NCBI RefSeq assembly: GCF_036917395.1
Contig: NZ_JBALDI010000011.1
Span: forward strand, 15,446 to 79,445
DNA from: Nostoc sp.
Lineage (GTDB): Bacteria; Cyanobacteriota; Cyanobacteriia; Cyanobacteriales; Nostocaceae
Reading direction: 5' to 3'
DNA length: 64,000 bases
Shown here: positions 58,249-61,081 of the stretch, piece by piece
Position numbering within the stretch: position 1 is the first letter of the stretch
Layout: every line of letters starts with the position of its first letter
Made by a program: the position numbers and the translations under genes
Notes under the pieces: generated by a model
What the model was told of the DNA's origin: nothing
Databases searched by the model: none
Seen by the model: the letters and a program-made list of their open reading frames with translations, nothing else

Positions 58249-59541
58249 TAATGACTCTTCTTGTTCTAAAAACAAGTTGCCTATGCCAAACAGAAGTTCC
58301 ATCGTGCCTCGATAGCCAACTTTGGTAAACTGACCATTACCTAAACGGTCATAAATGGGCAGTCCGAGACGATAAAGAGGAATCGAGAGCCGTTTAGCGA
58401 TCGCACTTACATTCGAGTTACCAATCAGCAAATCAGAGCCGTCTGCTAGACTCTCAAAATCTTCCAAATCACCGATGGTGATGCTTTTAACCGAGAGTTT
58501 TTCTAGTAAGTGCGATCGCGTGGTAGTCACCGCAGCGTGAATCTGCGCTCCCATCGATTGCAGGAAATGCACTGTTGACCATAGCAAATCTGGTTCTAGC
58601 GCTAGGGAAACTCGTTTTGCACCAAAGTAAAAGTGAGTGTCCAACATTGCATCTTGCAACTGACGGCGTTGGCGGCGGTATTTTTCGGGTACGCTGTTAC
58701 CACTCAGAATCGCTAATGCTTGGATAAACTCATCTACCGGTTCTAATCCAGTCAGTTCGCCAAACACCTCATAAGGTGTGCCAAAGCGTTCTTCTAGAAT
58801 CTTTGCAGCATCCCGCATACTTTCACCCAATGCTAGGGTAAAAGCAGAACTACCTACTTCTTGTAGCTGTTTTAAGGTAGTTCCACTGACTGTAACTGCA
58901 CTATAACCATCCTCTAAGTGTCCATCTAAGGAAGCCCCAAGGTCAGGTACAAAGATAGGCACTAGTCCAAAGGCTGTGACTATCTCTTTGATTTCTTGTA
59001 CATCCCCTGGTGTGAAGGCAGAACCCGCCAAAACCGTGACTTGTTCAGTTCTGAGTTCACCTGGTTGAGGAATTTCCTTAACTATGCTTTCCACAGCAAC
59101 AGCAAAGCCATCTTGCAACGCCCCTTTAAAATCTGGGGTAGGTGCAAAAACGATCGCTAAATCATTCAATTCTGGATGGCGATCGCGAATTGCTTTGATA
59201 AAGCCCTCAATGTCATCCCCTCTGGTTTCAGTCAATCCCGTGGTGCATAAACCAATAATTTCCGGGTTAGCCTTTTCTACCAAAGTGAGAATTGCTTGTT
59301 CCACATTCTCTTCGCCACCCAAGATAGTAGTGACTTCCGTCATCGCTGTTGTAGCTAGGGGAATCGCTTCCCGGAAATGCCGCACCAGGACAACTTTGGC
59401 GAAAGCAGTACAACCTTGAGAACCGTGGAATAAGGGCATCGTCCCTTTCAATCCCAAAAAGGCTAAGGTTGCACCCAAAGCTTGACTTTGTTTGAGGGGA
59501 TTAACTGTCAGTGATTTGTTAGAAACAGTGACGATCGCCAT
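58216..59541 (-). CDS. nifN: FeMo-cofactor scaffold NifN
   Basis: PLFHGSQGCTAF and RRQLQDAMLDTH. Confidence 0.97.
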   Translation of the reverse strand: MAIVTVSNKSLTVNPLKQSQALGATLAFLGLKGTMPLFHGSQGCTAFAKVVLVRHFREAIPLATTAMTEVTTILGGEENVEQAILTLVEKANPEIIGLCTTGLTETRGDDIEGFIKAIRDRHPELNDLAIVFAPTPDFKGALQDGFAVAVESIVKEIPQPGELRTEQVTVLAGSAFTPGDVQEIKEIVTAFGLVPIFVPDLGASLDGHLEDGYSAVTVSGTTLKQLQEVGSSAFTLALGESMRDAAKILEERFGTPYEVFGELTGLEPVDEFIQALAILSGNSVPEKYRRQRRQLQDAMLDTHFYFGAKRVSLALEPDLLWSTVHFLQSMGAQIHAAVTTTRSHLLEKLSVKSITIGDLEDFESLADGSDLLIGNSNVSAIAKRLSIPLYRLGLPIYDRLGNGQFTKVGYRGTMELLFGIGNLFLEQEESLVETRLIASVQ

Positions 59542-59702
59542 TACAATACCTCCTCATTCCACAGGATGGACTTTCTCGTTCCCCGGCAGAGCCAGGGAAT
59601 GCTGACAGTGAGGCAAAGCCTCATCTGCTTTAAAACGAAGGGCAGCAGCCCTCCCGGAATGCGTTCCCAGGTTCCGCCTGGGAACGAGGGTATAAGAGCC
59701 AT
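59541..59702 (-). CDS. 53-codon bridging ORF between nifE and nifN
   Basis: ATG overlaps the nifE TAA (TAATG at 59704-59700); its TAA overlaps the nifN ATG (59543-59539); no internal stop. Translation is not shown. Confidence 0.45.
   Translation of the reverse strand: MALIPSFPGGTWERIPGGLLPFVLKQMRLCLTVSIPWLCRGTRKSILWNEEVL
59575..59688. mobile_element. 114-bp REP/MITE-like hairpin element
   Basis: Ends CTCGTTCCC...GGGAACGAG; each end contains an 8-bp hairpin; central GAGGC-TTT-GCCTC hairpin. Confidence 0.75.
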
Positions 59703-61081
59703 TAAACTGCTTCTTCTTCCCAAGGAGCGGGCTTACGTATTTGCTCCCAAATTGGGCTATACAGAGCTTCATACAGTTCCCGCGCCATCTCAATCATCCC
59801 CACATAACCTGCATAAGGATGGTGACGTTCTTGGTTGATATCAAGGAAAGGAATTCGAGCTTTCAAAGCGGTGTATTGGTTACGACCACCAGCAATCAGC
59901 ATATCTGCTTTGGTGTCTTTAACCACTTGTAGCAATTCTTTAGCGTTACCCTTCTCCAACATGATGCCATCATTGCCGAGCAACTTCTTGATTTTAGCTT
60001 TATCTTCCTCGGTACTTTTTCTAGTACTGGTAGCAACAACTTCAATCCCTAAATCTTTAGCAGCGGATATAATGGACCAACTCTTAACACCACCTGTATA
60101 TAAAATAACCCGCTTACCTTTTAGTCGAGCGCGATATGGAGCCAATGCCAAATCTAAAGCAGCCGTTTCTTCTGCAATCAGCTTTTCTGTGCGCTCCTGC
60201 AAATCAGCGTCGCCTAATTTAGCAGCGATATTTCGCAGACAACGATTCATATCATCGATGCCGTAGAAAGACTCTTCAATGTAGGGGATGTTGTAACGCT
60301 CCTCCATCTTTCTCGCCATGTTGAGCAACGCTCGTGAGCAGATCATGACGTTGAGCTTGGCACGGTGGGCGTAGCGAATTTCATTGTAGCGAGCATCGCC
60401 CGTAATTTTAGATAAAATACGGATGCCTAATTTTTCTAGCAGTGGTGTTACTCCCCACATTTCCCCGGCGATATTGTATTCACCGATTAAGTTAATATCA
60501 TAGGGCGTTGTATGTTCCGGTTCTGCTGTGCCGACAACATATTCCAATAAAGATTCACCGCCAAAACGGTTGCCGAGATTTTTACTGCCAATGAATCCTG
60601 GGGCAATGACGGGAACAACAGGAATACCAATTTTCTCAGCTGCCGCTTTGCAGACAGCATCCATATCATCACCAATTAAGGCTGTAACGCAAGTGGCATA
60701 GACAAATACTGCTGCTGGTTGGTAGCGCTCTTTGAGTTCCAGAATCGCTTTGTAAAGCTTCTTTTCGCCACCGAAGATGACATCATTTTCACCCAAGTCA
60801 GTGGTAAAGCCCATTTTGTAGAGTTGAGGGCCAGAAGAAAGACTACCACGACTGCCCCAGGAATTACCAGCACAGGCTATAGGACCGTGGACTAAATGAG
60901 CAGCATCTGCGATCGGCACTAGGGCAATCATTGCACCATCAAAGGCGCAGCCCCCTTGAGCTGCGCCAGGTTGTGCCTGTTGGGCGCAAGACTTACTTTT
61001 CTTTTCGGATTGTTTGTGCTGATTATGCTCGCATCCTGTCTCAGTCAGCAGCTCGTTGATTTTGCCTTGGGTGATTTTCAT
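59702..61081 (-). CDS. nifE: FeMo-cofactor scaffold NifE
   Basis: [19 protein letters not shown] and [12 protein letters not shown] at 61081. Confidence 0.97.

Follow-up and report, generated by a model that had tools for sequence, protein, structure and literature searches.

Introduction

In Escherichia coli the gene pairs trpE-trpD and trpB-trpA are translationally coupled through overlapping stop and start codons. A synthetic bicistronic design, reportedly introduced by Mutalik et al. in 2013, consists of a short leader cistron which contains a Shine-Dalgarno (SD) sequence and whose stop codon overlaps the start of the gene. Hairpin repeats of the REP, BIME and ERIC families, the small dispersed repeats of cyanobacteria and the Nezha MITEs (miniature inverted-repeat transposable elements) normally escape translation and exert their effect on mRNA stability or termination. 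Here we describe the junction between nifE and nifN in a 64,000-nt stretch of DNA from Nostoc sp. (assembly GCF_036917395.1, contig NZ_JBALDI010000011.1, positions 15,446 to 79,445 of the forward strand; this whole stretch is referred to as the window, and coordinates are counted from its first nucleotide), where a MITE-like hairpin element is contained in a 53-codon open reading frame (mini-ORF) that begins on the nifE stop codon and ends on the nifN start codon. NifE and NifN form the scaffold for assembly of the nitrogenase FeMo-cofactor and are needed in equal amounts.

Some palindromic repeats, such as the Rickettsia palindromic elements and other MITEs located within genes, are tolerated there in frame (PMC10969869). 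NifE and NifN assemble into a stoichiometric heterotetramer, and their genes are fused in some cyanobacteria, as in Anabaena variabilis nif2 and Chroococcidiopsis (PMC4284476).

Comparison with related junctions points to the mini-ORF as a translated relay cistron, under weak selection for remaining open, which would pass ribosomes from nifE to nifN and preserve the coupling of the two genes; we assign this reading a probability of roughly 0.55. Literature searches found no earlier description of a mini-ORF between nifE and nifN, and we are inclined, from the sequences, to regard the relay as translational coupling, a known phenomenon, in a novel form, with the synthetic bicistronic design as its artificial analogue.

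The Mini-ORF and Its Two Junction Copies

The mini-ORF occupies positions 59702-59541 of the minus strand, with 53 sense codons and a stop from ATG to TAA. At its 5' end the stop of nifE, whose final codons are GCA GTT TAA, overlaps the mini-ORF ATG (59702-59700) in a first TAATG at 59704-59700; at its 3' end the mini-ORF TAA (59543-59541) overlaps the nifN ATG (59541-59539) in a second TAATG at 59543-59539. The coordinates of this double-TAATG ORF, proposed in a first-pass annotation of the window, were confirmed on the minus strand, and in the ORF list the mini-ORF is also contained in a longer, TTG-started ORF (59541..59723). The SD of nifN, GAGGAGG, is located at 59555-59549 on the same strand, 7 nt before the ATG and within the last codons of the mini-ORF, so that the proposal of a ribosome-binding site (RBS) belonging to nifN itself was likewise verified. 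By sequence, the mini-ORF shows both marks of a translationally coupled pair, a stop/start overlap and a downstream RBS inside the upstream ORF.

The two ends of the mini-ORF are copies of one junction. The left copy (59734-59698, minus strand) contains the true C-terminal codons of nifE, the TAATG and the first bases of the mini-ORF. The right copy (59573-59537, minus strand; KSILWNEEVL*, TAATGGC) is a diverged nifE end which now forms the C-terminus of the mini-ORF and carries the nifN RBS. These copies, of 37 nt each, constitute direct repeat D1 with 72% identity over 25 nt in the window, and in relatives the right copy reads AAG TCC GCC CTG TGG AAT GAG GAG GTA GTT TAA, which is identical to the nifE end at 26 of 33 nt. 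The duplication of the junction, put forward in the first-pass annotation, is thus borne out by the direct repeat together with the alignment with relatives. The SD site of the left copy is weaker in the window (GAAGAAGAAG), with GAGGAGG in most relatives. At uninterrupted junctions GAGGAGG also sits in the final nifE codons, and on this comparison the nifN SD is ancestral and not made by the insertion.

Between the copies lies the MITE-like palindromic element (59688-59575, minus strand; inverted repeat I1), which has four hairpin modules and the ends CTCGTTCCC...GGGAACGAG. Its arms, 59575-59613 and 59650-59688, measure 39 nt each and are 74% complementary. The length of 114 nt and the lack of a stop in the mini-ORF frame were reproduced, as was the product MALIPKSILWNEEVL* left by excision; stops number 2 and 1 in the remaining sense frames.

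Survey of nifE-nifN Junctions in Relatives

Junctions of relatives were collected by two protein-anchored scans and by one DNA pattern scan, which was anchored in the coding sequences of nifE and nifN with a free gap between them and was therefore blind to frame. The sample comprised 117 distinct nifE-nifN junctions, and a metagenome scan gave 5 additional loci. NifE of the window showed 94-98% identity to NifE of 80 Nostoc-like genomes, and nifN, used as the tblastn anchor, was found in all relatives. The two genes overlap by TAATG or TGATG at 47 of the 117 junctions and are separated by 0-2 nt at 13 more (60 in total); as judged from these sequences, an overlapping or near-abutting nifE-nifN pair is the background state of the clade.

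The element of the window (type A) was found in 26 Nostoc species, in 22 of which the bridging ORF between nifE and nifN is intact. The intact spacers are 151, 157, 160 or 163 nt long, in addition to one with a TAAATG left end and one with a TAGTG/GTG start. The ORF is broken in the other four species, by 5 additional nt in L014, by loss of 1 nt together with a TGA in L017, and by a gain of 1 nt together with a TGA resulting from hairpin-loop inversion in the pair L297/L303. In 10 species and 2 metagenome contigs this site is occupied by another repeat (type B), and the bridging ORF is intact in all of them. Its spacer lengths (130, 148, 151, 160, 169, 175 and 196 nt), all seven of which equal 1 modulo 3, arose through at least 8 indels, every one a multiple of 3, including a nested 45-nt element. 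This nested element is a GC-rich palindrome, CCGCGCCAGTTGCTACAACGGGGGGAACCCCCGCAACGCACTGGC, inserted in frame and stop-free in the type B repeat of L049, L306 and L315.

Altogether, a bridging ORF with overlapping or abutting (TAA ATG) ends on both sides is present in 32 of the 36 species with a type A or type B insert. The first TAATG is kept in 33 of 36 relatives with a bridging ORF, the variants being TAAATG (L036) and TAGTG with a GTG start (L304), and the second is kept in all type A and type B relatives, one metagenome allele having TAAATG. Counted from the nifN ATG, the duplicated piece covers about -32 to +17 in type A and about -18 to +31 in type B. A third insert type (type C; L069/L070) also has a bridging ORF, and a fourth insert, in a Trichormus metagenome-assembled genome (MAG; L302), has a bridging ORF that overlaps the nifE stop through ATGA and whose TAA is followed, after a single T, by the nifN ATG (TAA-T-ATG). 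Unrelated inserts of four kinds (types A, B and C, and L302) thus all yield bridging ORFs, which speaks for the relay.

In another group of loci (L025, L046/L056, L078, L127/L149) the C-terminal tail of NifE has taken up repeats, some of them heptamer-like, in frame. These tails are longer by 10-50 residues but still end in ..EEV[VI]*, and the overlap of nifE with nifN through TAATG is preserved. Nostocales-type nifEN contigs (L009, L063, L086, L089) were also encountered in public MAGs labelled Acetobacteraceae, Chroococcales or Leptolyngbyaceae, which are probably binning or labelling errors.

Reading Frame of the Spacer

Distinct spacer lengths, and not species, were taken as the unit of the frame test. 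Eleven of 14 distinct nifE-nifN spacer lengths were in frame and 3 were out of frame (binomial P about 7e-4 for p = 1/3, and 0.03 for a conservative p = 0.5). The flanking spacers of the same 36 species served as controls: that between nifN and nifX had 32 distinct lengths (16/8/8 by remainder modulo 3), and that between nifK and nifE had 30 (8/12/10). The nifE-nifN spacer is much less variable in length than either flanking spacer and is strongly frame-biased with respect to both. Frame-breaking changes were each confined to a single species or one species pair, whereas multiple-of-3 changes were common to 3-7 species. Among close Nostoc species (L001-L310, regions corresponding to 57667-58216 and 61081-61655 of the window) the nifN-nifX spacer ranges from 42 to 397 nt and the nifK-nifE spacer from 540 to 734 nt, nearly every species having a different length.

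This is real comparative evidence, and it suggests that an open frame across the insert is maintained for the sake of translation itself. A conserved frame could in principle also belong to the other strand, on which a 90-aa ORF (59566-59838, plus strand) overlaps the mini-ORF and the nifE 3' end. In most loci of types A and B the spacer is indeed crossed by a stop-free antisense frame, but relative to nifE the open antisense frame differs between the two types, a conserved ATG inside the spacer is missing from about half of the type B loci, and two multiple-of-3 indels lie upstream of the type A antisense ATG. Such an ORF would, in addition, overlap the conserved nifE 3' end. The antisense ORF was rejected as the source of the conserved frame, on account of the differing frames and the missing ATG, and judged a by-product; the chance that it is what selection has preserved appears negligible.

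The Mini-ORF Peptide

The variation within the mini-ORF is equal at all three codon positions, and for this reason the peptide is considered unconstrained. The numbers of variable sites at positions 1/2/3 were 23/21/24 in type A and 12/10/9 in type B, and nucleotide diversity by codon position was 0.136/0.121/0.121 in the type A mini-ORF versus 0.026/0.014/0.171 in the adjacent nifN. As far as the alignments indicate, what is conserved is openness, frame and the ending on the nifN start, not the peptide, and the term coupling peptide, used in the first-pass annotation, is misleading in this respect.

A functional small protein would be consistent with the presence of the ORF in more than 30 species and with the annotation of a few copies as 'hypothetical protein'. 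The level of variation is, on the contrary, near that of third positions in the flanking genes, inversions of hairpin loops rewrite runs of several residues, and the peptides of types A, B and C are unrelated except at their ends. The protein database contained only 8 clusters of 52-53 aa, all from Nostoc and all from the nifE-nifN locus, unnamed or listed as 'hypothetical protein', and no Pfam domain was found in these 8 clusters. A functional peptide was rejected on the flat codon-position variation, the lack of a Pfam domain and the lack of homologues beyond the locus, and we consider it very improbable.

The Hairpin Element and Its Dispersed Family

The element is small, has terminal inverted repeats and is without a transposase gene, and the ends of its family consensus are CTCGTTCCCAGG...CCTGGGAACGAG. 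Its terminal hairpin, CTCGTTCCCAG-N7-CTGGGAACG, was matched by at least 120 stretches in other genomes, mostly of filamentous cyanobacteria but also, unexpectedly, of Planctomycetota, and a profile of the element (nhmmer) recovered 41 full-length copies, 76-155 nt in length and likewise built of four hairpins. These two sets of matches justify the label MITE-like, and the copies in other genomes substantiate the view of the first-pass annotation that the insert belongs to a dispersed hairpin family; no second copy of the type A element was found within the 64-kb window. In many filamentous cyanobacteria the family (CTCGTTCCCAGGCTCTGCCTGGGAACG ... CGTTCCCAGGCAGAGCCTGGGAACGAG, four modules, about 105-150 nt; L161-L280) was observed, and near-identical terminal hairpins in Pirellulales, Gemmataceae, Thermoguttaceae and Rhodopirellula of the Planctomycetota represent a cross-phylum spread of a small repeat. 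A partial copy of the type B repeat (a CTCTGCG...CGCAGAG hairpin) is located at 36361-36409 of the window, so that the type B family is dispersed in the very genome whose nifE-nifN site carries type A.

The lengths of the 41 other family copies were not biased to multiples of 3 (11/16/14 modulo 3), and about half of their reading frames were stop-free. The probability of a single in-frame, open insertion by chance is thus roughly 0.15 per event, which is not rare, and the significance of the arrangement therefore derives from the relatives and not from the window alone. Flanking direct repeats of the other copies had a mean longest shared word of 6.2 nt, as compared with 6.2 nt in the control; with no long repeats flanking them, an ordinary MITE target-site duplication was rejected as the source of the ~49-nt junction duplication, which is atypical. 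The latter may have originated by a tandem duplication before the insertions or by an unusual repair event which made both.

Folding of the RNA of 59530-59715 gave -81.6 kcal/mol (z = -4.7 versus dinucleotide shuffles). So stable a fold, with four hairpins kept in 20 relatives, raises the alternative that the element acts as an RNA or DNA structure, such as an mRNA stabiliser or a processing site, or is a selfish repeat, and that its translation is incidental. The nif transcripts of Anabaena are indeed stabilised by stem-loops at processing sites (PMC4284476). The conservation of the hairpins is, nevertheless, accounted for by recent common descent, with covariation in just 1 of 44 pairs at a divergence too low for more. 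No terminator-like site (a GC-rich hairpin with a T-run) was found at the element, and an Rfam search of it gave no family match apart from chance-level miRNA matches (E = 0.2-0.35), so that neither a terminator nor a known RNA family could be assigned as its identity. A structural role would predict neither the conservation of frame nor the double stop/start overlap, and we regard it as improbable. The mean minimum free energy (MFE) per nt of the spacers, -0.40 with a bridging ORF versus -0.27 without one, is confounded by phylogeny and G+C content; the stronger predicted structure of the former would be in keeping with translation being important at strong hairpins.

Individual hairpin loops and loop-proximal stems were found inverted between species (window positions 59588-59590, 59615-59617 and 59662-59688; L003, L023, L303), as exemplified by GGCGGAACC versus GGTTCCGCC and by GGCTCTGCC versus GGCAGAGCC. 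These flips leave the length unchanged and rewrite codons, and one of them created the in-frame TGA of L297/L303.

Proposed Relay and Evidence Against It

In the proposed scheme the ancestral Nostoc state would have been a direct TAATG overlap of the nifE stop and the nifN start, with the nifN GAGGAGG inside the last nifE codons. In the lineage of the window, a palindromic MITE-like repeat lies between two copies of a ~49-nt junction piece. The left copy retains the genuine end of nifE together with the former initiation site of nifN, at which the mini-cistron now begins, and the right copy provides another SD and TAATG, so that the mini-cistron stops precisely where nifN starts. Ribosomes arriving from the nifE end, or binding at the old site, would read across the four hairpins, terminate at the nifN ATG and initiate anew at that codon, and the translational coupling of nifN to nifE would outlast the insertion. 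Selection would act on openness and frame but not on the peptide, and its effect would be quantitative, not essential. The stoichiometry of NifEN and the existence of fused nifEN genes (PMC4284476) offer, by analogy, a plausible selective reason for such a relay. A contig of a lichen metatranscriptome is continuous through nifN, the mini-ORF and nifE, which is compatible with co-transcription, although as weak evidence.

A number of observations weigh against the relay. The four species with a broken type A ORF have no premature stop in the visible part of nifE or nifN (the L297 locus ends inside nifE); L007 and L038, relatives of the type C loci, have a broken ORF and long spacers; the spacer of L030, of 397 nt, is without an ORF; and about 15 loci of Nodularia, Anabaena, Cylindrospermum, Umezakia, Trichormus and others have frame-random spacers of 92-608 nt without an ORF. 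Because of these broken alleles and loci without a bridging ORF, the relay, or the coupling itself, must be dispensable. The assertion of the first-pass annotation that only frame-preserving insertions are tolerated was too strong, given four broken mini-ORFs beside intact nifE and nifN and the ORF-less spacer of L030. The comparison of spacers across relatives that it had proposed, for length in frame and a conserved double TAATG, came out largely positive within the Nostoc clade, by the counts of species and lengths given above and against frame-random flanking spacers, and negative in the other genera. Its interpretation is in this sense partly supported, whereas its claim of a maintained NifE:NifN stoichiometry exceeds the data.

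The signal of stop avoidance is marginal: in type A, 2 new stops were observed in the ORF frame versus 4.55 expected, both in already frameshifted alleles, and 9 in the other two frames versus about 5 expected (one-sided P about 0.045), by a substitution-based test which is low-powered for type A and invalid for type B because the consensus leaves the frame across gap columns. GC-rich palindromic repeats are, moreover, often stop-free. Also to be counted on this side is that nifN keeps a good SD at optimal spacing, and that the predicted unpaired probability of this SD was 0.36 in type A, 0.27 in type B and 0.37 at uninterrupted junctions. As predicted accessibility is similar with and without the insert, the variant in which the element masks the nifN SD and translation has to expose it was found unsupported; the long-range closing stem of the MFE fold of the window is, besides, only weakly present in the consensus structure. 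Termination-reinitiation would be the simpler mechanism.

The number of independent events is a further point. Both junction copies show derived states that are common to types A and B (left GCGATCGCAAC, right AATGAGGAGGTAGTT), and for that reason the two types are perhaps not independent origins; a single duplicated junction may underlie both, or recombination may have taken place. A neighbour-joining tree of the flanking genes intermixes type A, type B and uninterrupted junctions, so that recombination confounds the event counts and gains and losses could not be polarised. Most of the relatives are, besides, MAGs.

Taken together, these points could be read as a neutral by-product, that is, an insertion which fell in frame by luck and was inherited, with nifN using its own SD and the mini-ORF having no role. 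The chance per event calculated above, the ancestral SD, the coexistence of broken alleles with intact nifEN, the uncoupled spacers in many genera, the weakness of the stop test and an insert that does not further mask the SD are all in line with it. It leaves unexplained why 11 of 14 lengths, and all 7 of type B, are in frame while the flanking spacers vary freely, and why types A, B, C and L302 all have bridging ORFs ending on the nifN start; we therefore consider neutrality unlikely, if far from negligible. The translated relay cistron is the preferred reading. The wider proposal, that Nostoc hairpin repeats landing on overlapping stop/start junctions are repeatedly converted into relay cistrons, through copying of a ~49-nt target or through a pre-existing tandem duplication, with selection retaining openness and frame alone, is tentative, and we rather doubt it.

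Other Features of the nif Region

All nif genes of the region lie on the minus strand in the ORF list: nifK at 63286-61655, nifE at 61081-59702 (ATG start, MKITQ..., 459 aa, TAA at 59704-59702), nifN at 59541-58216 (441 aa) and nifX at 58080-57667. A second family of palindromic repeats, ACGCGATTAATCGCGT (read as ..TRLIAS..), was observed at 58153-58242 and also at 19104-19119 and 63241-63256. Three copies occupy the nifN 3' end and the nifN-nifX spacer, this repeat supplying nifN with its final 9 codons and its stop (..VETRLIASVQ*), and a further copy is present in the 5' region upstream of nifK. A near-HIP1 site, GCGATCGT, is located at the nifN start (59530-59541), and in the non-coding left junction copies of L014 and of type B loci it is replaced by the perfect HIP1 palindrome GCGATCGC.

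Significance and Comparison with Known Systems

If the relay holds, the locus would show that an operon can accept a selfish hairpin repeat at an overlapping stop/start with ribosome flow retained, and the comparative evidence would mean that translation as such can be the sole reason for conserving a reading frame, its peptide being unconstrained. It would provide a natural counterpart to the bicistronic designs of synthetic biology, including those of nif-cluster refactoring, and a warning for annotation, since what is entered as a short 'hypothetical protein' between coupled genes may be a relay cistron instead of a protein gene. Were the repeated conversion into relay cistrons true as well, it would amount to a general natural bicistronic design by which operons absorb selfish DNA and keep subunit stoichiometry, and relay cistrons should be detectable at other coupled gene pairs.

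With the trp pairs the locus shares the TAATG overlap, the downstream SD in the last upstream codons and the expectation of matched subunit output; unlike them, it has two successive overlaps and a 53-codon non-conserved cistron, so that coupling would be relayed and not direct. The resemblance to the synthetic bicistronic design lies in the order of parts, SD1-ATG-short ORF with SD2-TAATG-gene, and in the rationale that ribosomes unfold structure before the start, whereas the putative nifE-nifN relay is natural, placed between two genes, derived from a junction duplication and a mobile repeat, and kept across species.

Like the Rickettsia elements (PMC10969869), the insert is a palindromic repeat of ~100-150 nt that persists just where the reading frame is unbroken, and the relatives with repeats inside the NifE tail provide a further parallel; the repeat of the window, in contrast, is fused to neither protein and forms its own cistron, bounded by re-created gene ends. 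As with fused nifEN, the relay would be an alternative means of 1:1 synthesis of NifE and NifN; the fused genes give a single polypeptide, whereas in the window NifE and NifN are separate proteins. As a dispersed GC-rich hairpin family between cistrons, with loop-flip variants, the element resembles the REP, BIME, ERIC and Nezha repeats, from which the nifE-nifN copy differs in being embedded in an ORF of conserved frame.

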